29,485 nucleotides of DNA from Microcystaceae cyanobacterium (GTDB taxonomy: Bacteria; Cyanobacteriota; Cyanobacteriia; Cyanobacteriales; Microcystaceae): positions 1-29,485 of the forward strand of contig JBGTGT010000003.1 in assembly GCA_041746575.1 (NCBI GenBank). The letters are read 5' to 3'. The notes under the pieces were generated by a model. The model was not told the origin of the DNA. It saw nothing but the letters and a program-made list of their open reading frames with translations, and made no database searches. The position numbers were made by a program, and so were the translations under genes. This document shows positions 18,763 to 29,176 of this stretch, in pieces (the stretch's first letter is position 1; each line of letters opens with the position of its first letter).

Positions 18763-19629
18763 TTACAATACAGTTGACTTAAAGTATTGTGCATAAAGCC
18801 GTTTCACCTTTTCTCGATAAAGTTTTCGGACATTTTCAGGAGCGATAATTATACAATCCTCCCAGTAAGGAGAAATTTCTCGAAAAAACCAAAAGGTACT
18901 ATAAATAGGACGAATAACTCGCCGAATCGGGGGATCACCTTCTAATTCCCCGATAAATCGATCTTGATTAGTCGAGTTGTAAGCAAAAGCCAGTCCTTCC
19001 AAAAGATGAAACTCGACGGCGACTCGTTGTAAATCGATTTCCCATTGACGATCAATGGACGTTACCGCCGCTTCTTGAATACGATCTAAGCGGAGACAGC
19101 GATTGTGCCTCAATTCGGGAATATCTTGGCTTCCCTCGGTTTCTTCACAGCGACACATTAAGTATTGGCGTTTTTCGATCAGTTGGATTTGAGCATGAAG
19201 TACCGTAAAGTGAAAAAGTCGTCCTCCCGCATCCTGATAAGTCAACTTAAAGGGTTGACGTTCTTTGATGTACTGCTCCATCTGTTGTCGCCACCCTGTT
19301 TGAAGGATATCCAAGAAGCTTTCAATCTTCCGACGAAAGGGAGCTTGGAGTTCACTGCGCTGTACCAGTATTCCGGCAATTTCTTTTGCATTGTCGATTT
19401 TTCCAAGGTCTATTAAGGCTTGTCTGGCTTGTTCGAGAGCTTGGATTCTTTCTTGTGTCCAATCGTGGTTTGACGCAATCAGCAGTTCTTGTCGAGCGAT
19501 CGCTTTCAACAAACGTGAGATATTGGGCTTTTCCCCCCATTTCATTCCTTTTTCGTGAGCTAAGGCTTCTAATTGCAGTTTTTCTTGTTCAGAAATAGAG
19601 AGAGTGATCGATTGTCCTTTGCGTCCCAT
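18763..19629 (-). CDS. WYL-domain transcriptional regulator (type I-D associated, Sll7009-like)
   Basis: N-terminal ribbon-helix-helix-like SITLSISEQEK...PNISRLL, central WYL-like LTYQDA...RQYL...LRLDRI, and C-terminal FWFFREI..Y..DC.II.PE.VR. Divergent from the cas operon. Confidence 0.85.
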   Translation of the reverse strand: MGRKGQSITLSISEQEKLQLEALAHEKGMKWGEKPNISRLLKAIARQELLIASNHDWTQERIQALEQARQALIDLGKIDNAKEIAGILVQRSELQAPFRRKIESFLDILQTGWRQQMEQYIKERQPFKLTYQDAGGRLFHFTVLHAQIQLIEKRQYLMCRCEETEGSQDIPELRHNRCLRLDRIQEAAVTSIDRQWEIDLQRVAVEFHLLEGLAFAYNSTNQDRFIGELEGDPPIRRVIRPIYSTFWFFREISPYWEDCIIIAPENVRKLYREKVKRLYAQYFKSTVL

Positions 19630-19865
19630 AGTGTACGTCCACTTTGTCCGTAAAAATATTGCATATCTTCATTATCAAGGTTAAAAATAGAGATAGCAAT
19701 AGTTTAAGTACATTAAATACGGAGGTAGAAAATAGAGTATAAATAATACTCAAATATTTTTGATAACGAGGGTAATCTTTGAGTCGTTTTGGGGAAGTCT
19801 TGTATTGAAGGAGGATTAAAGAAAAGATGTTCTCAATGCAATTGCTCAATCAGGCGCATTTACGC

Positions 19866-19890
19866 AAAAAGCTAGAGTTTAACCCTAGCT
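19866..19890 (-). terminator. Intrinsic terminator of the CRISPR-like RNA
   Basis: Minus strand reads AGCTAGGG-TTAAA-CTCTAGCT then TTTT, directly after the second repeat. Confidence 0.75.
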
Positions 19891-19981
19891 TACAATCCCT
19901 CATAGGGATTAATCATGGAAAAAGGGGATTTTTAGCCTTAATCGCTGTATTCTTTCAATTCCTCAGAGGATTTATTCAGCT
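19866..19981 (-). ncRNA. Putative Cas-regulating CRISPR-like RNA (crlRNA/CreR-type), about 115-nt precursor
   Basis: Promoter, two repeat-like units, a spacer and a terminator lie in order on one strand. Predicted Cas6-matured form is 19959-19897 (63 nt). Confidence 0.75.
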
Positions 19982-19987
19982 TCCTCA
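19889..19987 (-). CRISPR. CRISPR-like mini-array: pseudo-repeat (19987-19952), 27-nt spacer (19951-19925), repeat (19924-19889)
   Basis: Minus strand: TGAGGAAGCTGAATAAATCCTCTGAGGAATTGAAAG / AATACAGCGATTAAGGCTAAAAATCCC / CTTTTTCCATGATTAATCCCTATGAGGGATTGTAAG. The repeats share 21 of their 27 3' positions and carry 3'-proximal hairpins with ATTG(A/T)AAG ends, like cyanobacterial I-D repeats. Confidence 0.85.
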
Positions 19988-20016
19988 TTATATCAAAGGT
20001 TTTGTATTGTGTTCAA
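19987..20016 (-). promoter_or_regulatory. Sigma70-type promoter for the mini-array
   Basis: TTGAAC (20016-20011), 18-nt spacer ending TGA, then TATAAT (19992-19987), an extended -10. Predicted TSS about 19980-19981. Confidence 0.75.
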
Positions 20017-20037
20017 TAAATGAGTAAAGATAGACTT

Positions 20038-20055
20038 CTTAATCGCTGTATTAAC
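20038..20055 (-). promoter_or_regulatory. Partial protospacer with GTT PAM targeted by the mini-array spacer
   Basis: Minus strand GTT (20055-20053) is followed by AATACAGCGATTAAG (20052-20038), identical to spacer nt 1-15 (19951-19937). Confidence 0.85.
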
Positions 20056-20063
20056 CTACTTTG

Positions 20064-20072
20064 TGCTAATCT
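20064..20072 (+). promoter_or_regulatory. Putative extended -10 of the cas operon promoter
   Basis: TG-C-TAATCT. The implied -35 position (about 20044-20049) lies inside the protospacer. Confidence 0.55.
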
Positions 20073-20153
20073 AAAAAATAAGTGAACTAAGACACGGTAA
20101 GCCTTATCCACCTATTCCTTTATCATACTTATTTTTCTAGGGTAGGGCATGAC

Positions 20154-20405
20154 TTGTCTGGTTCGCAAGTATCCAATGAATTAAGTAAGAAGTTTTTTCC
20201 AATGTCACTACCAGAACGTATGCTTCGTTTGATGTCCGATGGTGCATGGTATTCCAGTGATGAATTGGTGGAAAAAATTAGTCATCGCTTTTCTGCTACA
20301 AAGCACATTCTTGAAAAACGAGGGTTTAAGTTTGAAAAACGCCGTCTTCAAGGACAACAACACGAATACAGATTAGTGATTGACTCAAAAGCGATCGCTA
20401 AATAA
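20154..20405 (+). CDS. Small winged-HTH-like protein, first ORF of the cas operon
   Basis: ERMLRLMSDGAWYSSDELVEKISHRFSATKHILEKRGFKFE...EYRL has a wHTH-like pattern. Start is TTG 20154 or ATG 20202. Confidence 0.7.
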   Translation: MSGSQVSNELSKKFFPMSLPERMLRLMSDGAWYSSDELVEKISHRFSATKHILEKRGFKFEKRRLQGQQHEYRLVIDSKAIAK

Positions 20406-20469
20406 CCACTAATCTACAGAGAGGGTTTTTATTCCCTCTCAATTACCTAAATCATTTTATAGGATTATT

Positions 20470-23202
20470 ATGTCTAGAAGTCTATTGAATCGTCAGCCTC
20501 AATCTCTTGAGGAGCAATATTTTAGTGAGATTCGACCTAAATTATATGAGCTTCATGGACAACATCTTCAATATGGTTCTCGCAAAGGACGCACATTAGC
20601 CGAACATTTAGACTCTGCTTGTCAGTTTGTGTTAACTGTTAGCAAAATTGCCAAACTTCCAGAAGAAAAACGAGGTTGTATTCTAGCGGCGACAGCCGTT
20701 CATGACTTAAATAAGTTAACGGATAAGGAGGATAAACGTAATGTGAAAGCCTTAGCAAGGGATCTAACTTTCCTTCAAGAACAGTTGCAACTCGCAGGGG
20801 TTAGAAAATTAGTCAAGACTGATGAAGATTTAGAATTAGTTCGTCGGTTGATTGAACGACATTCAGGACATAATGCCAGTGATGGAATGCGCTTTTTACC
20901 TGAAGATCCTAATATAAAACGTTGGGCGGCAATGCTCATCGGTGCTGATTTATTTGATCTTGGCATTGATAAAGATAAACGGATTTGTAAAGTTGAAACT
21001 GAGCTAACTGTTGCATTAGGTCGAAATATTCAGTTATTTGAAATTACTTTGTCAGAAGATAGAGGGTATTTAACGTCCTTGTTACTGAGTGCTTGTGAGG
21101 AAGTTTTATATCGTTATAATTTGTACACTCTTGCAATTAATCCCAATGGTCAAATCTTTGTGGGAGAGAAATTTCCTGAAGAAGATGTAACGATTAAGAT
21201 AGCTAACGTTTGGCAGAAAAAAATTGACAGTGTTTTTGGTAGTAATGTTGAACAATTAGTTAAAGCAACTAAGGATGGAATTAAAGTCAATAATGAAGCT
21301 ATTCAGCAAAATTTAGAGGGAGCGATTGATGCAGTTGATCAGCTTTTAGTCAAAAAATTCAAGAGTTATACAAAGGAGAAATTAACTCAAGATATTAACA
21401 AATATGGTAATGATGCAGGTGCAGAAGCGGTTAAACAAGCTGAATCATTGGGGTTATTCCCTGTAGATAGTGCTGACGAATTTGTTTTATCTGAAGGAAT
21501 GAAAGCAATTTATTTAAGCTATCGAGAAGCTGAACTAAGCCCGTCTGAGGCGTGGGATAGAATAGCAGAAGATATGGGACTTTCACCTGAACAAAGAGCC
21601 GCTTTAGAGCCTTTTAATCCTCAGTATGGACGGTGTTTATTTGCGGCACAAGTTGCTAAAATTAAAGGATTAGAGGAAATATATAACGCTCTAAGAAATT
21701 CCTTTGAATTTCGAAAAACTGAAGATATAGATGTATCAGCAGAACTCATTAATGCAGTTCAATATTTGCTCAATTTTCCCACAGCAATAAACTGGCAAGG
21801 ATCTTCAGAACTTACTGCTTATATTGAAGCAAATCCTCGTCAACGTTGTTCTTTAGGAACGACTTCCCTGCAAGTCAGTGAATTAATTTCTAACCAAATG
21901 CCACCCGGAACAAAAGTTCAATCCTTTTCTAATCGCCTTCCGGGAGGGATGAGCGCAGAACCAAAAAGACGAGGAGACAACTTAGCTTCCTTAAGCTACC
22001 AATTATTAGCAGTAGGTGCAAACTTTTCCAAAGCGAGCAAACAAGATCCCTTGTATCTTCATTTTGCTTTACCTAATGGTTCGAGCCCAGAATTAAAAAT
22101 AATTTGGCAAAAGTGGTTACAAGAAAAAGCAGATACTAATGCAGATGGAGGAACAGTAACTGTTGATGAATTAGAACTTTATCGAGATAACCACTTAGCT
22201 TTTAAAGCCAATAAAGTGGTCGGTGCTGCTTTACCAAAGCGTCCCGACTTTACTCAATCTACTGTCATTATTCCCCTTGTATGGGGTGAGGTTAATAGTT
22301 CAATAGCTTTACTAAAATCTTTACGCCTTGCACTTGAATTATCACTTGCACCTGATTTCGGTTTTCCTTTCATCTTAGGAGGTAATTTAGAGATAAAACC
22401 TCAGTGGGATATTTTTGGACAAGTTGAAGGAATTCCTTCATCTTTACAACCCCTATTAGGGAATGGTCAATATTATCGCCAAGGACATCTTTCTGAGAAA
22501 CAACAACAGAAAGTTTTAACGGCTGAAGCGATTTTAGACCGATTACGTTGCGTTGGCAAATTAGCGATTTCTGTTGCTAGTTTGAGGAAAAAAGATGATT
22601 GTCTTTACGATTTAGTTAAAGCCACTCAACGACCTCTCGATTTATATTATGTCCTTTTAAGATGGATTCTTCGAGAACAAAATGATCCTAATTTAGAAGC
22701 CATTTGGAATCGAATTAAAGAACCTTTACACCAATTATTAAGGAGTCTTATGTCAGAAGAACATGATTTAGTTTCACAGTATCTTAAAGATGCTGCTTTG
22801 ATTGCTGAAACAGCAAAATTGCGAGGAAGTTCTTTCCGTCGTACCGCTCAAACTGAACCTTTTTCAGAGTTTATTAAAGCGGTACGTTCTCGTAAATCTC
22901 ATTTAGATTGGGACACTGTTTTTGCTTCATTAGTTCAACAATATCACACTCGATTAGATCGAATTCGTGAACATGGAGTTGGAGCAACTAAATTTGAACA
23001 AATCAAGCAATTTTATCAAGTCCTGCGCCAACTGTTTGATGAGGTTTACCATAATCGTCCTGAGCGTTTACTGTCAGACCAAAAAACGTTAGAAGCTGCC
23101 TATTTGTTCTTTTTACAAGAAGCTCGTCAAGACCTTAAAGCACAAGCTGATAGTAACAAAGACCAATCTGAAAATTTATCTGAAAACAACGAGGAAAATT
23201 AA
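20470..23202 (+). CDS. cas10d: Type I-D large subunit Cas10d/Csc3 with N-terminal HD nuclease
   Basis: 910 aa with TLAEHL...VHDLNKL...RHSGH...GADLFD HD motifs and an AGGA RBS; precedes the cas7/cas5 genes. Confidence 0.88.
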   Translation: MSRSLLNRQPQSLEEQYFSEIRPKLYELHGQHLQYGSRKGRTLAEHLDSACQFVLTVSKIAKLPEEKRGCILAATAVHDLNKLTDKEDKRNVKALARDLTFLQEQLQLAGVRKLVKTDEDLELVRRLIERHSGHNASDGMRFLPEDPNIKRWAAMLIGADLFDLGIDKDKRICKVETELTVALGRNIQLFEITLSEDRGYLTSLLLSACEEVLYRYNLYTLAINPNGQIFVGEKFPEEDVTIKIANVWQKKIDSVFGSNVEQLVKATKDGIKVNNEAIQQNLEGAIDAVDQLLVKKFKSYTKEKLTQDINKYGNDAGAEAVKQAESLGLFPVDSADEFVLSEGMKAIYLSYREAELSPSEAWDRIAEDMGLSPEQRAALEPFNPQYGRCLFAAQVAKIKGLEEIYNALRNSFEFRKTEDIDVSAELINAVQYLLNFPTAINWQGSSELTAYIEANPRQRCSLGTTSLQVSELISNQMPPGTKVQSFSNRLPGGMSAEPKRRGDNLASLSYQLLAVGANFSKASKQDPLYLHFALPNGSSPELKIIWQKWLQEKADTNADGGTVTVDELELYRDNHLAFKANKVVGAALPKRPDFTQSTVIIPLVWGEVNSSIALLKSLRLALELSLAPDFGFPFILGGNLEIKPQWDIFGQVEGIPSSLQPLLGNGQYYRQGHLSEKQQQKVLTAEAILDRLRCVGKLAISVASLRKKDDCLYDLVKATQRPLDLYYVLLRWILREQNDPNLEAIWNRIKEPLHQLLRSLMSEEHDLVSQYLKDAALIAETAKLRGSSFRRTAQTEPFSEFIKAVRSRKSHLDWDTVFASLVQQYHTRLDRIREHGVGATKFEQIKQFYQVLRQLFDEVYHNRPERLLSDQKTLEAAYLFFLQEARQDLKAQADSNKDQSENLSENNEEN
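22750..23202 (+). CDS. cas11d: Cas11d small subunit from an internal in-frame start within cas10d (150 aa)
   Basis: AGGAG (22741-22745), 4 nt, then in-frame ATG 22750 (Met761, MSEEHDL...) ahead of a helical C-terminal domain. Confidence 0.75.
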   Translation: MSEEHDLVSQYLKDAALIAETAKLRGSSFRRTAQTEPFSEFIKAVRSRKSHLDWDTVFASLVQQYHTRLDRIREHGVGATKFEQIKQFYQVLRQLFDEVYHNRPERLLSDQKTLEAAYLFFLQEARQDLKAQADSNKDQSENLSENNEEN

Positions 23203-23205
23203 ACC

Positions 23206-24246
23206 ATGTCCATCGAAAAATTAGCCCCCTTTCTTGCTCCTAAATACGAAAACTTTCCTAAAGGTCGTACCATTGGGTTAGTGATTTTAAGAACCACTCA
23301 ATCAGAAACTATTTTTCGCACGGAAGGGACAGGCGAACCGATGTGTAGTGAGTCCGTTCAAGCAGGATTTGAAGACACAAATATTATGCCTCGCTTAGTG
23401 ATGACAAAACGCAAACAAATTGCTCCAGAAAGACGACGAGGACGGGAATTTTTACGGTCAAATGAGTTGCTCTATATCGCTAAAAACGACAAAGTGTGTT
23501 CTCTTAATACCAACGCTCCCTGTGAAATGTGTATTGATTGTTTTCTCTATGGTTTTGCCGCAGGAGGAGAAGGCGCACAGAAAAGCCGAGTATGGACAGA
23601 GGATGCTTTTAGTATTTTACCTTCTACGGAACTGATAGGCGATCGCACAATCAATGCAACTTATGAAAATGGCACAATGCGCGATGAAGAAGGAAAAGCT
23701 TCAACTGCACTTAATACCAGTGAATATATTAAGCCGGGGGTTCATTTTTTGGATATTGTTACCCTCAAAGACGTGACGGCTGATGAGTTACGTTATGCAA
23801 TCGGTAATATTTTATTAACCACTCGTTACGGTGCAGTTTCTAGTCGTGTCGGACGGATGGATAATCAAATTTTAGGGGTATTTGGGGGAATGGCTGAACT
23901 GCCCAGTTCTCTCGAATTAGTTCAAGGGATTTATGATAAGTTGCAAGCAGATAAGATTGAACTTGATCATCCCTTAAAAACCGATCCTTTGATCACTGCA
24001 ACTCAAGAAATTATTGTGACTTGGACAAATAAAAGAGGTGTTTCTTTGCAACTGTCTGACAGCGAATTAAAAGAATTACTCGCTGACATTGATCAAAATT
24101 GGTCAATAGAACAACAAGAAACTTTCTTAAAACGCCTCGATAATTCTTACGCAGAATATCGTAAGAAACCAGAAAACCCATCTGCTAAAAAAGGAAAGGG
24201 TAAAGCTTCTAAACAACAGCTAGAAAAAGCTGAGGAAGAAGAATAA
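23206..24246 (+). CDS. cas7d: Type I-D backbone subunit Cas7d/Csc2
   Basis: LRTTQSETIFRTEG, KRKQIAPERR.GRE, CEMCIDCFLYGFA, KSRV..EDAF, YGAVSSR.G. Confidence 0.9.
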   Translation: MSIEKLAPFLAPKYENFPKGRTIGLVILRTTQSETIFRTEGTGEPMCSESVQAGFEDTNIMPRLVMTKRKQIAPERRRGREFLRSNELLYIAKNDKVCSLNTNAPCEMCIDCFLYGFAAGGEGAQKSRVWTEDAFSILPSTELIGDRTINATYENGTMRDEEGKASTALNTSEYIKPGVHFLDIVTLKDVTADELRYAIGNILLTTRYGAVSSRVGRMDNQILGVFGGMAELPSSLELVQGIYDKLQADKIELDHPLKTDPLITATQEIIVTWTNKRGVSLQLSDSELKELLADIDQNWSIEQQETFLKRLDNSYAEYRKKPENPSAKKGKGKASKQQLEKAEEEE

Positions 24247-24249
24247 ATC

Positions 24250-25032
24250 ATGAAACAACTACAGTTACAGCTTGACACACCAAAACCTACTTTCACAACA
24301 GCGAGATTAGTTGAATTGTGGTGTGCTGAACCGATCTTTTTTGCCTCACGGGAACTGTCAGACACTTATTATACAGAAGGAACAATCGGAAATTATGCTC
24401 TTGCTTATGCGTTATCTTGGGCAAAATCTCCCTATCGTTTAACAGGAAAAGATACCTATAGACCTCGATATGTTGAGGATTTAACACCTCTTAATGGGGA
24501 TTGTTATATCCTTCCTGCATGGCCAATTAACGAACAAATTTCCTTTCGTTTTGAACGGTTTAATGGACTTTCTGATGCCTATTGGTATGCGATGACAAAT
24601 AATAGAGTAGCAACCGCGCGGGAAGATTTATCGATTGTTCGTAGTGGCAAAAAACCGAGTACCTTTCGACCCAGTAATTTTCCACAAACGGGACGACTAA
24701 GAGTAATTGAAAGAAACAACCGATTTCAAACATTAGTATTGGGAGAACGTGAACTTCCTGAATATATCCGTGTGGGTAAATTTATGAGTAAAGTTCGCCT
24801 TGATATTAAACAGACATTTAAGATTAGACAGCTTCCTGTTGCTCAGTATTCATGTAATACTTATTTGAGTGTAGCAGATATTCCGTCTAATCTTGAATTA
24901 ATCGCCTTTGATGTTATTTCAATTCCTCCTGTCTCTTTGTTAAAAAATCTTAGCTTTCAGGGTAAAGCGTGGCAAATTGGGGATTTTATTGTTCCCGCTA
25001 ATCTTCAGTTTTGTGGAGGAAATAATAACTGA
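24250..25032 (+). CDS. cas5d: Type I-D Cas5d/Csc1
   Basis: FFASREL...T...IGNYALAYAL, N.PQ.GR and LPEYIRVGKFMSK; follows csc2. Confidence 0.88.
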   Translation: MKQLQLQLDTPKPTFTTARLVELWCAEPIFFASRELSDTYYTEGTIGNYALAYALSWAKSPYRLTGKDTYRPRYVEDLTPLNGDCYILPAWPINEQISFRFERFNGLSDAYWYAMTNNRVATAREDLSIVRSGKKPSTFRPSNFPQTGRLRVIERNNRFQTLVLGERELPEYIRVGKFMSKVRLDIKQTFKIRQLPVAQYSCNTYLSVADIPSNLELIAFDVISIPPVSLLKNLSFQGKAWQIGDFIVPANLQFCGGNNN

Positions 25033-25128: not shown

Positions 25129-27417
25129 ATGAATAGCAAACTTGAAATTACCATCGAACCTGCTAGTATTGCTACTTGTTTAGATATTCCTACTGAATTA
25201 GAATTCATGGGAAAAACATTACAGCATCAAGTAGATGTTTATGAAGCAGCAAAGGATCATGATATTATTCTTGATCTTGCACCCACAGGAACAGGAAAAA
25301 CGGATGCAGGATTAAGTATTTTGAAGCATAATCCTGATAGGAATGCTATCTATATTGCTCCTACTAATGCACTGATTGAACAGCAAACCCAAGCCGCAGA
25401 AGAATTTGTCGAAAAAGCAAGTTTACCTCACATTGTTAAAGCGGCATCAGCAAGACATATCAAAGATTGGCCAAATGAGAAAGTCGGAAAACGTCGAGGC
25501 AAAAAACTTTATAATGTATTGCGTGAACCTGCTACTATTTTTCCTGAGTGTCAGAGCCAACCGCTCTTATTAGTGACTAATCCAGATATTTTCTATTACG
25601 CAACCTTCTTCTATAATAGACTAGATAAAAGCAACATTGCTAGTGAATTTTACAGTAGTTTTTCAACAGTAATTTTTGATGAATTTCATCTTTATGTTGC
25701 CAAACAACTTGTTAGCTTATTTTTCTATATGGCAATGTCTAAAGTTTTCGGTTATTTTAGTCATAATCGAAAAATTGTCTTATTAACAGCAACCCCCGAT
25801 CCAGCGTGTAATGCTGCTTTAGAAACTTTACAGCGATCAGGGGTTAAAATTAAAAAGATTGATGGACAAGAAAATCAAACTCATTTAACTCCCTCACAGA
25901 CACAGGTTAATCTCACGATTTGTAAACAACCAGACACGAAAGATCAATTCGTTCAAGAAATTGTTCAGGAAGTGACTCGAAGATTAAAAGAAAACCCTGA
26001 GCAAAATGGTGCAGTCATTCTTGATTCAAAAGATACAATAGGAAGAATCTATGATCAACTTTATAAAAAAGGATTTAAAAGTCAAATAGGTCGTATTATT
26101 GGTAATACTCCTCTTAAAGATCGTAAAAAAGCCGTTCAAAAACAAGTCATTTTAGCGACTCAAACGGTTGATATAGGATTTAACTTTAAAAAGATTCCAG
26201 AACCTGCTCGACAAAATTTAGATTGGTTAATCTTTTCCACTCGTGATCGTTTCTCTTTTTGGCAAAGAATCGGACGAGTAGGGAGAGTTTTAGGTAAACA
26301 AGAAACGGATATTATTTCAGAGGCGATCGCTTATCTTCCAGAAAAGGCATGGGAACAAGGGATTAAAGAATTGGACATTAATGGGGGACGAGAATCATTA
26401 AGAACAATGTTAGATAGTTTAGATTGTATGAAACGTCCATTTTTAGAAGTCTATTGGAGGTCAGAAGCTTTTTTAGAAATTGCTAGACCGTTACTTGAAC
26501 TTGAGAATGTTTTAGCTGGATTATCGAATGAAAATTTAATTATTCAACTTTATCAAACCCTACAAAAAATATTGGGTGGAAGCAAAGATTGGAATTATTA
26601 TCGTCAACGAATGAAGGTTATTCAAGGAGCAAATAATATTTGTAATTATTCTATCGAAAAATTACAGAAAGACTGGAAATATATTAAAGGTGGTCAAAAC
26701 TGTGTAATGAGCTTTCTAAGATCGAATTATCTAGAAGATTATGAAACAATACAAGCAGATCAAGCATCTATGAAAACGATAGAAAAGTTCATTCAAGAAG
26801 ATCCTAGTATTGCTAATGAACTACTAGAATATGCTCAAATTTTGCAAGCGAGTTATACTCCTTTATTTCGTTTTCGAGATAGTTTATTTGAAAATGTGAA
26901 AGTTCATGATCCTAATTTTCTTCTTTTAGACGAAGCAGGAGAGACAAATCTTGATCCGATTCATTTACTGCGATATTTAGAATTTGAAACCAATGGAGAT
27001 ATTATTGAATTAATTGAACGTGCTGAAATTCCTTATAATCTAATATTTTCTTTACAAGTTGAAGATTTAGAAACTTTCAATAATACTTATTTAGCAAAAC
27101 TCTATGCGTTTAAAAATTTACATATTAAACGAATGCAGGGAGGGAGTACCCGTCCTACTGATTTTCCTTCATCCTTACAAAAAGCTATTCAAGAAACCCT
27201 AATTTCGGGCGTTATTGTTAAAGAAAATAATAAAAATCGATGGGCAATTGCTAAACTAAGAAAACAAGGTTTAGACTGTTATTCGCTAGAAGTTTCAGAT
27301 TACTCAAACTTAAAACCTCAAGAGTATCTATTCTTTCCCAGTTTATCAGGAATTTTAGCGATCGCACAAGCAGGTTTTGCTTTAAAATGTCCAGATAACG
27401 AGCCTTTTATTTGCTAA
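25129..27417 (+). CDS. cas3: Type I-D CRISPR helicase Cas3' (no HD domain)
   Basis: HQ motif, APTGTGKT (Walker A), PTNAL, DEFH, TAT, ATQTVDIG.NF, QRIGRVGR. Confidence 0.9.
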   Translation: MNSKLEITIEPASIATCLDIPTELEFMGKTLQHQVDVYEAAKDHDIILDLAPTGTGKTDAGLSILKHNPDRNAIYIAPTNALIEQQTQAAEEFVEKASLPHIVKAASARHIKDWPNEKVGKRRGKKLYNVLREPATIFPECQSQPLLLVTNPDIFYYATFFYNRLDKSNIASEFYSSFSTVIFDEFHLYVAKQLVSLFFYMAMSKVFGYFSHNRKIVLLTATPDPACNAALETLQRSGVKIKKIDGQENQTHLTPSQTQVNLTICKQPDTKDQFVQEIVQEVTRRLKENPEQNGAVILDSKDTIGRIYDQLYKKGFKSQIGRIIGNTPLKDRKKAVQKQVILATQTVDIGFNFKKIPEPARQNLDWLIFSTRDRFSFWQRIGRVGRVLGKQETDIISEAIAYLPEKAWEQGIKELDINGGRESLRTMLDSLDCMKRPFLEVYWRSEAFLEIARPLLELENVLAGLSNENLIIQLYQTLQKILGGSKDWNYYRQRMKVIQGANNICNYSIEKLQKDWKYIKGGQNCVMSFLRSNYLEDYETIQADQASMKTIEKFIQEDPSIANELLEYAQILQASYTPLFRFRDSLFENVKVHDPNFLLLDEAGETNLDPIHLLRYLEFETNGDIIELIERAEIPYNLIFSLQVEDLETFNNTYLAKLYAFKNLHIKRMQGGSTRPTDFPSSLQKAIQETLISGVIVKENNKNRWAIAKLRKQGLDCYSLEVSDYSNLKPQEYLFFPSLSGILAIAQAGFALKCPDNEPFIC

Positions 27418-27444: not shown

Positions 27445-27705
27445 ATGACTATTCAAGAATTAATCGAAGCCCTCTCCCCATCTGACCCCAATACTCCCGT
27501 TGTTATAAGTGGTTATAAAGGAGGTTACAACGATGTTAGTATCATCGAAAAGAAAACCATGCAACTGAATGTTAATAACAAATATTATTATGGTGTACAT
27601 AATTGTATAAAAGGATTAATTGTTTCCGATAAGCCGATAGCTGAAGTAATTTATTTAAGGGGTTTTAATTCCATTTATGATGAACCTGAGTTATCTTATC
27701 ATTAA
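27445..27705 (+). CDS. Small hypothetical protein within the cas operon
   Basis: 86-aa ORF MTIQELIEAL...PVVISGYKGGYND, co-oriented and tightly spaced with neighbours. Confidence 0.6.
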   Translation: MTIQELIEALSPSDPNTPVVISGYKGGYNDVSIIEKKTMQLNVNNKYYYGVHNCIKGLIVSDKPIAEVIYLRGFNSIYDEPELSYH

Positions 27706-27764
27706 GTTGCAAATAATCTTGATAGTTGTCTAATTTTTATCATTGTCAATGGAATCTCAACATT

Positions 27765-28325
27765 ATGTCAAACCAAACTCAAACCAAACTCACCCTAGAC
27801 GAATTCCTCTCATCTCCCTTGGCTAATGAAAACTATGAATATTTTGACGGAGAATTAATTCAAAAGATGTCGCCTAAATTTTCTCATTCCCGTGTCACAG
27901 GTCAATTATTTATCCTTCTTGAAGATTGGAATCAAGGAAAAGGAGAAATTGGCATTGAATGGTGTGTTCGCTTAAAACGTAATGGAAAAGATTGGTGTCC
28001 CATTCCAGATTTACTCTATATCTCTTTCGAGAAACTAGGTGATATTGAATTAGAAGATGATGCTTGTCCAATTCCTCTAGAATTAGTCATAGAAATTATT
28101 TCCCCTGATCAATATTTTAGTGATCTCAGCGAAAAAGCAGAATCTTATTTAAAAGCAGGGGTTAATCGAGTTTGGCTAATTGATACTCAAGTTAAGAAAA
28201 TCACTATCTTTTATCCCGATTCTCCGCCACAAACTAAGCAAGGTGAAGATGCTTTAGCTGATGATTTATTACCTGAACTAAATTTAACCCCTCAACAAAT
28301 TTTTCAGAAAGCAAGATTAATTTAG
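27765..28325 (+). CDS. Uma2 (DUF820) family endonuclease-like protein
   Basis: LTLDEFL...EYFDG..IQKMSP..H, PDLLY, LVIEIISP, K...YL.AGV.RVWLID. ATG 27765. Confidence 0.88.
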   Translation: MSNQTQTKLTLDEFLSSPLANENYEYFDGELIQKMSPKFSHSRVTGQLFILLEDWNQGKGEIGIEWCVRLKRNGKDWCPIPDLLYISFEKLGDIELEDDACPIPLELVIEIISPDQYFSDLSEKAESYLKAGVNRVWLIDTQVKKITIFYPDSPPQTKQGEDALADDLLPELNLTPQQIFQKARLI

Positions 28326-28363: not shown

Positions 28364-29176
28364 ATGCCTTATAGTCTTGTTATTAATTTAACTCCCATTT
28401 CTCCCCTGTCACCGAACTATCTCAGTGGAAGACACCTTCATGCCTTATTCCTGACTCTCGTTAGCTCAGTCGATCCGGAATTAGGCAATTATCTACATAA
28501 ATCTCAAGTAGATAAAGCTTTTGTCCTTTCTCCTTTTCAAATTAGTGGAAAATCTCACAAAATTGTCTGGAGTCATACTAAACCTATCCCCTATGGTATT
28601 CCCTGTTGGTTTCGCATTTCTCTTTTAGATGACACGCTTTTCGGCAAATTAACTCAATTATGGCTTAATCTCAACCCTAAGCATCCTTGGCATCTTGGTT
28701 CTGCTGATTTACACATTACTAGCATCTTAGGCACACCCCAATTAACTCAACCTTGGGCGAATAGTTGTTCTTATCAACAATTATATGAACAATCGAGTGA
28801 AACGGAGCGTAGTTTTCATTTTACCTTAACAACTCCCACTGCCTTTCGAAATGGTCAGTATGACACCGCCTTACCCACTCCTGATGTTGTTTTTAATAGT
28901 CTCTTAAGACGATGGAATAAATACAGTAAAATTCCTTTTGATTCTTTTTCCATCACTGCTATCTTTCCCAGTTTTTTTGATATTCATACTGAAATCGTCA
29001 CTGACTCTCGTAGTAAGTTTATTGGTTGCGTTGGGAATATTCAATATCGTTTATTAGGAGAAGTTGAACCCTCGCAAATTAAACAGATTAACACCTTAGC
29101 AAATTACGCCCTTTATTGTGGCATTGGACGTAAAACAACAATGGGGATGGGAATGGTTATGAGAGTTAATCGTTAA
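28364..29176 (+). CDS. cas6: CRISPR endoribonuclease Cas6
   Basis: GRHLHALFL, TPTAFR and the C-terminal G-loop YCGIGRKTTMGMG. Confidence 0.95.
   Translation: MPYSLVINLTPISPLSPNYLSGRHLHALFLTLVSSVDPELGNYLHKSQVDKAFVLSPFQISGKSHKIVWSHTKPIPYGIPCWFRISLLDDTLFGKLTQLWLNLNPKHPWHLGSADLHITSILGTPQLTQPWANSCSYQQLYEQSSETERSFHFTLTTPTAFRNGQYDTALPTPDVVFNSLLRRWNKYSKIPFDSFSITAIFPSFFDIHTEIVTDSRSKFIGCVGNIQYRLLGEVEPSQIKQINTLANYALYCGIGRKTTMGMGMVMRVNR

Follow-up and report, generated by a model that had tools for sequence, protein, structure and literature searches.

A Degenerate Mini-Array with a Partial Match to a Promoter Upstream of the Type I-D cas Genes of a Microcystaceae Cyanobacterium: a Candidate for RNA-Guided Autorepression

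The Locus and Its Features

The type I-D CRISPR locus described here lies on contig JBGTGT010000003.1 of the Microcystaceae cyanobacterium assembly GCA_041746575.1. The whole contig, one of 134 in the assembly, was analysed, and its 29,485 nucleotides (nt) are referred to below as the window. The cas genes of the locus are on the plus strand, and a gene for a WYL-domain regulator lies upstream of them on the minus strand. The gap of 840 nt between the WYL gene and cas10d holds a minus-strand mini-array, in which two repeat units (R1 and R2) enclose one spacer, and a plus-strand open reading frame (ORF) for a winged-helix protein of 67 amino acids (aa). This study was concerned with the mini-array, which probably encodes a guide resembling a CRISPR RNA (crRNA), here called a crRNA-like RNA (crlRNA). 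Such a guide would hold the I-D Cascade complex on the promoter in front of the winged-helix gene and the cas operon. A preliminary description of the DNA, made from its letters, had classed the locus as type I-D, and this assignment was borne out by the NCBIfam matches of Csc2, Csc1 and Cas3' and by the PADLOC match Cas10_Id. The full set of genes for an I-D Cascade plus Cas6 is present and intact. A PDB sequence search with Cas10d gave no match. The features of the locus are collected in Table 1.

Table 1. Features of the type I-D locus, in order along the window; PAM, protospacer-adjacent motif; HTH, helix-turn-helix.
Feature	Position	Strand	Evidence or remark
WYL-domain regulator gene	18763-19629	minus	same strand as the mini-array and downstream of it
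Intrinsic-terminator-like hairpin and T-run	19866-19892	minus	fold: 10-bp stem, then UUUUU
R2, distal repeat-like unit; hairpin AATCCCTATGAGGGATT at 19910-19894	19889-19925	minus	I-D repeat core; Rfam
Spacer, about 26 nt; nt 1-15 at 19951-19937	19926-19951	minus	matches the target
R1, degenerate proximal repeat remnant with short hairpin	19952-19980	minus	ends in ATTGAAAG
Predicted sigma-70 promoter of the mini-array, TTGAAC-18 nt-TATAAT	20016-19987	minus	promoter scan 10/12; TG before the -10
Partial protospacer, equal to spacer nt 1-15	20052-20038	minus	exact match
PAM 5'-GTT-3' on the protospacer (non-target) strand	20055-20053	minus	GTT or GTC across 13 loci
Extended -10 element TGcTAATCT (TGCTAATCT), predicted promoter toward the winged-helix and cas genes	20064-20072	plus	11 nt after the PAM
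Predicted 5' leader; long-range stem of 20084-20093 with 20156-20164	20079-20201	plus	RNAalifold, 13 loci
67-aa winged-helix (HTH) protein gene	20202-20405	plus	first gene behind the targeted promoter
cas10d (type I-D large subunit)	20470-23202	plus	PADLOC Cas10_Id, 1514 bits
csc2 (cas7d)	23206-24246	plus	Pfam Csc2, E 1e-107; NCBIfam TIGR03157
csc1 (cas5d)	24250-25032	plus	NCBIfam TIGR03159, E 2.4e-64
cas3' helicase (type I-D)	25129-27417	plus	NCBIfam TIGR03158, E 1.9e-92
86-aa ORF, no family match	27445-27705	plus	between cas3' and cas6
Uma2-family putative nuclease gene	27726-28325	plus	PADLOC PDC-S03
cas6 endoribonuclease	28364-29176	plus	Pfam CRISPR_Cas6_N, E 6e-71; NCBIfam cas6

The Mini-Array and Its Partial Match

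The 15-mer AATACAGCGATTAAG, which forms the first 15 nt of the spacer, occurs in two exact copies in the window, both on the minus strand. The second copy is separated from the mini-array copy by about 100 nt. At up to two mismatches 0.09 occurrences would be expected, and two or more matches were found in none of 100 dinucleotide-preserving shuffles. In the mini-array the copy follows directly on ...TCCTCTGAGGAATTGAAAG, where a repeat-like unit ends, and is flanked by AAG. The copy at the target is preceded by ...AAGTAGGTT, and its 5' flank is GTT. Beyond position 15 the two copies differ (GCTAAAAATCC versus AAGTCTATCTT), with identity at 1 of 11 positions. These results agree with the preliminary description, which had reported the exact match of spacer nt 1-15 directly after GTT, the AAG and missing PAM on the array side, an unmatched remainder of the spacer, and a seed-only match confined to the 15 PAM-proximal nt. 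Its spacer length of 27 nt was corrected to about 26 nt by alignment to a canonical 37-nt repeat. It had also taken GTN to be the PAM of type I-D. In the accessible part of PMC10212523 the I-D PAMs are given as GTN for Synechocystis and GTH for Microcystis, and the GTT of the target fits both.

The match is specific at the level of the genome. A search with GTN followed by seed positions 1-15, with positions 6 and 12 left free, found a single site in the 4.2-Mb assembly, where 0.01 was expected. One further site, on contig C99, was considered as an off-target with GTN and seed positions 1-11; it was rejected as not significant, 0.6 such sites being expected by chance. Sequencing contigs of four runs that were aligned to the window carried no variants within the mini-array or the target.

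Judged by its predicted parts, the minus-strand mini-array (19866-20016) would form a complete small transcription unit consisting of a promoter, R1, the spacer, R2 and a terminator. The last bases of R1, ATTGAAAG at 19959-19952, are the predicted 8-nt 5' handle, and AUUGAAAN, beginning 8 nt ahead of the spacer, represents the predicted 5' handle of the crlRNA. The core of R2, TAATCCCTATGAGGGATTG, agrees in all 19 of its positions with the core of the 37-nt I-D CRISPR repeat in L007, the closest relative found, whose Cas10d is 81% identical to that of the window. The Rfam family CRISPR-DR25 scored 24.9 bits on R2 and 18.9 bits on R1, both of which are below the gathering score of 36. Two repeat-like units around one spacer beside a cas locus are the arrangement of a mini-array.

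Conservation in Related Loci

Related loci were gathered by searching with Cas10d and, in 401 genomes from the same order, with the 67-aa protein. Homologues of the 67-aa protein were present in 66 of the 401 genomes, usually as a divergent pair with a WYL gene, and the 30 best of these 66 small-ORF loci were taken for a scan. On the strand opposite to the small ORF, the scan sought the handle ATTGAAAN with no more than one mismatch, followed by sequence that agreed with a second site in at least 9 of ten positions (1-5 and 7-11); this second site had to be flanked by GT and to lie no more than 400 nt away. The mini-array architecture was identified in 11 of the 30 loci, as against 0 of 30 for the opposite strand, 0 of 30 for reversed sequences and 3 of 600 shuffles in the same scan. 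Two more loci, G234 and the metagenome contig L075, gave a total of 13. L075 came from a metagenome scan with the pattern AGGAATTGAAANARTACNGC, which returned at least 116 stretches; among the 80 loci that were looked at, there was one true member (L075) and five ordinary CRISPR arrays, and the others were chance matches. A search of genome contigs with Cas10d gave two loci only. The 13 loci span at least 8 GTDB families of cyanobacteria and contain two close pairs (G415/G269 and G512/G495).

The architecture was the same throughout. All 13 loci have a mini-array -10 element, an R1 hairpin with AGGAATTGAAAN, a spacer, an R2 hairpin, a terminator and a same-strand target upstream. The target lies 85-117 nt upstream, except in one locus where the distance is 252 nt, and in the 11 scanned loci the small ORF is found 152-174 nt beyond the target. 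The -10 element of the mini-array, TAnnnT, sits 1-24 nt ahead of the R1 hairpin in every locus, and AGGAATTGAAA in R1 is invariant or nearly so. A pairing of R1 with R2 that RNAalifold proposed for the mini-array was rejected as an artefact of two similar hairpins, and our own three-hairpin structure was therefore scored. Over both repeat hairpins and the terminator, 87.7% of cells in the 13 loci were paired, compared with 27-60% when the partners were slid. For the terminator stem the value was 93%, and 5 of its 9 pairs had changes on both sides.

The distance from the start of the WYL gene to the small ORF is about 100 nt in loci without a mini-array and about 420-445 nt in loci with one. 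This difference in spacing suggests that mini-array and target together form an optional insert in a conserved WYL/winged-helix gene pair.

Parts of the element were also observed in loci outside the 13. L008 (at about 3010 and 2929 of the cut region) and L187 have no mini-array and retain an R2-like hairpin and a relic of the terminator. In both, TGTAATTATAA follows GGGTT at the place of the crlRNA target, and the same motif stands at the start of the WYL gene; a protein operator may have replaced the RNA-guided site there. In L002/L007 a single repeat-like unit, TTTTTCGTCATTAATCCCTATGAGGGATTGGCCAC, is located on the opposite strand about 65-90 nt upstream of cas10d. This locus has no small ORF and no target, and a full I-D array with the repeat GTTTCAACTATTAGTAATCCCTATGAGGGATTGAAAC is present.

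Pairing Positions and Covariation

Agreement between spacer and target was counted position by position over the 13 loci. Positions 1-5 agree in 13, 13, 13, 13 and 12 loci, positions 7-11 in 13, 13, 13, 12 and 13, and positions 13-15 in 11, 13 and 11. Agreement at position 6 is found in 1 of 13 loci, the window being the sole locus that matches there, and at position 12 in 3 of 13. Further along, position 16 agrees in 7 loci, position 17 in none, and positions 18-26 in 1 to 7. Positions 1-5 and 7-11 were used for detection, and positions 6 and 12-17 were outside the selection. Independent support is provided by positions 6 and 12-17, the third base of the PAM, the placement of the site and the controls. 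GTT serves as the PAM in 10 loci and GTC in the other 3, with no triplet other than GTH in any of them; on the array side the corresponding triplet is AAG, AAT, AAA or AAC.

The paired segment itself varies widely. Nine different seeds occur in the 13 loci (for example AATAC.GCGAT, AGTGC.GCAAT, AGCAA.GTGAT, TATAG.AAAGA and TTTGG.AAAGA), and at least two different matched bases are found at each of the 13 pairing positions. In 1014 comparisons at these positions (locus pairs multiplied by positions), changes on both sides that kept the match numbered 409 and changes on one side 57. At positions 6 and 12, two both-side and 72 one-side changes were counted in 156 comparisons. The covariation of spacer and target over related loci, which the preliminary description had put forward as a check on its proposal, is thus present across nine seeds.

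In type I-D each sixth base is flipped out and tolerant of mismatches, according to the accessible text of PMC10212523. Read from the aligned sequences, the pattern bears the 5+1 signature of pairing by a type I Cascade, with its Cas7 backbone along the guide, at partial complementarity. The mismatch pattern and its register therefore point to an RNA guide, not to a protein operator or a neutral duplication.

Two biases were noted at the free and distal positions, both in a small sample and uncorrected for multiple testing. Agreement at position 17 is 0 of 13, where about 3 would be expected. Among the 12 loci mismatched at position 6, 10 have C or G there in the spacer and 11 have A or T in the target. 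These biases at positions 17 and 6 may reflect selection against extension of the R-loop, within the limits of so few loci and of uncorrected multiple testing.

The Targeted Promoter and Its Leader

The -10 hexamer of the targeted promoter is at 20067-20072 in the window and transcription is predicted to start near 20079, so that the PAM and protospacer span about -24 to -41. On the plus strand, a TAnnnT hexamer is located 10-14 nt past the PAM in 12 of the 13 loci and 24 nt past it in G443, and TGn precedes this -10 element in 10 of the 13. A conserved A-rich start and leader follow it. The site had been described as covering the -35 position of a TGnTAATCT promoter facing the cas genes. The placement is supported by the positional conservation of the -10 element in the related loci, but the first gene that the promoter faces is the winged-helix ORF and not cas10d.

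In the leader, RNAalifold predicted a stem of 7 pairs over the 13 loci, 5 of them with changes on both sides; its consensus is GAACCAGAC ... GTCTGGTTC. This stem could be an RNA structure or an inverted repeat in the DNA. The 3' arm of the stem shares sequence with a short upstream ORF, whose product in the window is MTCLVRKYPMN; this ORF is not retained in L008.

The Winged-Helix and WYL Genes

The listing of ORFs extends the small ORF back to a TTG at 20154, and the alignment of homologues favours the ATG at 20202. Its 67-aa product was matched by the PADLOC HTH profile PDLC01152 (E 4.4e-13). Pfam and NCBIfam gave no significant match for this protein, weak winged-helix matches being found among its homologues only, and a PDB sequence profile search returned nothing meaningful. 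The AlphaFold2 model (predicted local distance difference test score, pLDDT, of 88) has three helices followed by a beta-hairpin, that is, the topology H-H-H-strand-strand. The best Foldseek matches of this model were winged-helix transcription regulators, at weak scores (E 0.02-0.2, template modelling score 0.6-0.69). No toxin family match was found for this gene in Pfam, NCBIfam and homologue searches, and the modelled fold suggests a winged-helix DNA-binding protein. The homologues are 62-75 aa in length, and their invariant residues include L10, M11, D13, W16, R29, F30, S31 and A32.

The WYL gene was identified by Pfam WYL at E 0.00089, which is below the family cut-off, and by the PADLOC profile for cas-associated WYL proteins at E 1.1e-10. 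Of the 30 related loci, 27 have a WYL homologue upstream of the small ORF. Motifs resembling GTGTACGTCCACTTTG, with a consensus of about AAGTGTAnTTACACTTT, were observed at the start of the WYL gene in many loci, often as two copies 71 nt apart. Examples are at 19631-19646 in the window and in L015, L017, L018, L042 and L043. These motifs are probably the operator of the WYL regulator.

Proposed Mechanism and Alternatives

We put at roughly three in four the probability that a guide of the crlRNA/CreR type parks I-D Cascade on the targeted promoter, with repression of the winged-helix gene and of the cas operon as the outcome. The functional part of this proposal is drawn from the precedent of CreR in types I-B, I-E and V-A, as presented in the accessible text of 10.1101/2023.03.10.532045. 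The mini-array would be a separately transcribed gene for a crRNA-like RNA, which Cas6 would cut at both repeat hairpins. The processed guide would then be loaded by I-D Cascade (Cas10d, Csc2/Cas7d, Csc1/Cas5d and Cas6), would read the GTT PAM and would pair with 15 nt of the plus strand. With complementarity ending at 15 nt, the R-loop would remain incomplete, at about 15 nt, and Cascade would stay on the DNA while cleavage by Cas3'/Cas10d would not be licensed. Bound at about -24 to -41, the complex would shut out RNA polymerase. Repression would extend over the operon from the winged-helix gene most likely on through cas10d-csc2-csc1-cas3'-...-cas6, with the winged-helix gene and cas10d presumably co-transcribed. 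The net effect would be a negative feedback of Cascade on its own synthesis, with derepression when canonical crRNAs compete for the Cas proteins or when anti-CRISPRs inactivate Cascade. The preliminary description had proposed this feedback and its relief, and its statements about the sequence were borne out. In several loci the -35 of the mini-array promoter lies 8-25 nt past the paired segment, so Cascade may also damp the crlRNA's own promoter.

Several observations weigh against this proposal. R1 is degenerate and folds into a hairpin of only about 4 bp, and processing by Cas6 on the 5' side is therefore not assured. The spacer is shorter than canonical I-D spacers, which are about 35 nt in L007, and the loading of Cascade is therefore an assumption. 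No RNA run covering this stretch of the window was found among 5 runs from two studies. The identity at positions 1-5 and 7-11 is partly by construction because these positions were used for detection. The targeted promoter has no recognisable -35 and for this reason was not called by the consensus promoter scan, which found zero plus-strand promoters in 19600-20500. No mini-array was detectable in 19 of the 30 small-ORF loci, and the circuit is therefore optional. In addition, no I-D-type array was found in the assembly by k-mer array finders or by fuzzy searches with R1, R2 and the L007 repeat, and no adaptation genes (cas4, cas1, cas2) accompany the I-D locus, the sole Cas1 of the assembly being on contig C46 with a type III-B system. 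The end of the contig (29346-29485) has about fivefold depth (141.8 and 169.7 in the last bin versus 28.2 and 34.6 elsewhere, in two runs). This multi-copy element interrupts the assembly 170 nt past cas6, so the absence of an I-D array and of adaptation genes is not proven. Lastly, the winged-helix ORF is the first gene behind the promoter, and cas10d begins 64 nt past its end. A hairpin lies in this 64-nt gap, and the cas genes could conceivably be driven by an internal promoter. The distance from the small ORF to cas10d is 1.1-1.3 kb in 3 of the 13 loci, and in 3 further loci more divergent I-D genes are found 3-9 kb downstream.

The last of these points bear on the one serious rival, in which the crlRNA is functional and controls essentially the winged-helix 'cargo' gene alone, while the cas operon has a separate promoter. 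The distances of more than 1 kb and the hairpin in the gap would suit this explanation, as would the winged-helix ORF directly behind the target in 13 of 13 loci. According to the accessible text of Shmakov et al. (10.1101/2023.03.03.530964), moreover, I-D mini-arrays are predicted to regulate cargo genes upstream of cas10d, transcriptional regulators included. We nevertheless consider it unlikely. The gap hairpin has no T-run, and the promoter scan offered no plus-strand promoter for the cas genes. In addition, 5 of the 13 loci, with the window among them, have cas10d about 60-400 nt further along the same strand, and in G234 it lies about 190 nt past the small-ORF match. The I-D genes are on the same strand in every locus whose downstream region was looked at, which was all but L075. 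A related proposal is that the winged-helix protein is the main output of the circuit. Cascade with the crlRNA would keep this regulator off. Should a burst of crRNAs titrate Cascade, or an anti-CRISPR disable it, the regulator would be made and would relay the alarm, with the WYL sensor, to other genes. We hold this to be a doubtful possibility; if it were true, the module would be a sensor of Cascade integrity with a transcription-factor relay. Since neither an I-D array nor adaptation genes were assembled in this genome, its I-D Cascade might on this reading even serve as such a regulator alone.

The two remaining explanations deny an RNA guide any present role. The mini-array could be a non-functional remnant, decayed from an old self-targeting spacer or from a partial intergenic duplication. 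The degenerate R1, the short spacer and the absence of the element from 19 of 30 related loci would be in keeping with decay, and so would the closest relative, L002/L007, with its one repeat unit and no target. However, the promoter, hairpins, terminator, PAM and seed are kept over at least 8 families with compensatory changes, and neutral decay would not keep 13 paired positions while freeing exactly positions 6 and 12, which makes a remnant improbable. We give still less credence to the view that both 15-nt copies are operators of the WYL or winged-helix protein with repeat-like flanks by coincidence, even though genes for DNA-binding regulators stand on both sides and the motif of L008 and L187, at the equivalent place and again at the WYL start, resembles palindromes elsewhere. 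In all 13 loci the copies start exactly after the last base of the repeat and after GTT or GTC, the mismatches at positions 6 and 12 and the end of identity at 15-16 are a Cascade signature, and a conserved operator would hardly be expected to show nine unrelated seeds beside winged-helix proteins of 56-76% identity.

Relation to Known Systems and Significance

The nearest precedent for the proposed Cascade-guided repression is the computational prediction by Shmakov et al. 2023 (10.1101/2023.03.03.530964), which in its accessible text describes I-D mini-arrays that target the promoter of cas10d or those of upstream cargo genes, the genes on the target side being a transcriptional regulator, a toxin-antitoxin pair or others. 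The mini-arrays described there resemble the present one in being type I-D, in having two repeats, in lying upstream of cas10d and in being transcribed opposite to the cas genes. They also resemble it in that a canonical PAM and a partial seed match are found in what is likely the promoter of the gene between the mini-array and cas10d, and a mismatch at position 6 is reported there for type I. They differ in that their upstream repeat is the better conserved, whereas here it is the downstream R2 that stays nearer to the canonical repeat, R1 having degenerated further. Both that work and ours are computational, and the present family may be among the loci already reported by Shmakov et al.

Autorepression by CreR has been shown experimentally in types I-B, I-E and V-A, and for type I-D the accessible text of the same preprint (10.1101/2023.03.10.532045) gives creA-like elements from a manual search only. 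The likeness to CreR, as described in that text, consists of a degenerate mini-CRISPR, a spacer whose 5' part is partly complementary to a cas promoter, a canonical PAM and a predicted autorepression that senses the load of crRNAs and anti-CRISPRs. In contrast to CreR, the first gene here encodes a winged-helix protein and a WYL regulator is found alongside, and the experimental proof is confined to the three types just named. CreTA of Haloarcula hispanica (type I-B) is similar, as far as its published description was available, in that a crRNA-like RNA of limited complementarity guides Cascade to divergent promoters from a mini-array inside or beside the cas locus. The gene held down by CreA is that of CreT, a small RNA toxin, whereas here no toxin is evident, although one made of RNA could conceivably lie in the 5' leader, and the regulated ORF is of the winged-helix kind. 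A WYL gene adjoining I-D cas genes is also known from the Sll7009-type regulators, as in Synechocystis (accessible text of PMC10212523). Control of the Sll7009 type is protein-based, whereas here a further, RNA-guided layer would lie between the WYL gene and the cas-side promoter. In the literature searched, later crlRNA preprints included, no experimental work on mini-array regulation in type I-D was found.

Circuits of this kind are thus already known from other CRISPR types and predicted for type I-D, and the locus is a well-supported further case. New here are the position-by-position pairing rules for type I-D and the link to a conserved winged-helix gene. Taken together, the window and its 12 related loci serve as a mutational scan of type I-D made by nature. 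The rules read from these loci are pairing at positions 1-5, 7-11 and 13-15, freedom at positions 6 and 12, and a PAM of GTT or GTC, with complementarity kept from passing about 16 nt in 13 loci. These rules can be tested for the binding of I-D Cascade without cleavage. They are relevant to the question of how cyanobacteria limit the cost of CRISPR and autoimmunity, and to the use of type I-D ("TiD") as a programmable repressor. In addition, three regulators, namely the WYL protein, the crlRNA and the small winged-helix protein, are linked at one divergent promoter.

Other Features of the Genome and the Locus

The only assembled CRISPR array is at C46:6192-8077 and consists of 26 repeats of GTTTCCATTCAATTAATTTCTCTACAGAAAAGAGAA. 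The genes cas2 and cas1 and a type III-B system (cmr2, cmr3, cmr4, cmr6 and a csm6-like gene) lie beside it, in the region 8000-24000 of C46. A standalone I-D-type repeat, GTTTAAACTAACAGTAATACCTATTAGAGATTGAAAT, was found on the plus strand at C120:47222-47258; it is identical to the L007 repeat at 30 of 37 positions and has no second repeat. As a target for this repeat, the best candidate was one 11-nt GTC-flanked match in the genome, which was rejected as not significant. The start of the window contig encodes a putative fragment of an IS630-like transposase, judged by a peptide motif. Between cas3' and cas6, the 86-aa ORF and the Uma2-family gene are unusual gene content for type I-D, and the 86-aa ORF is also conserved after the effector genes in L195 and L197.

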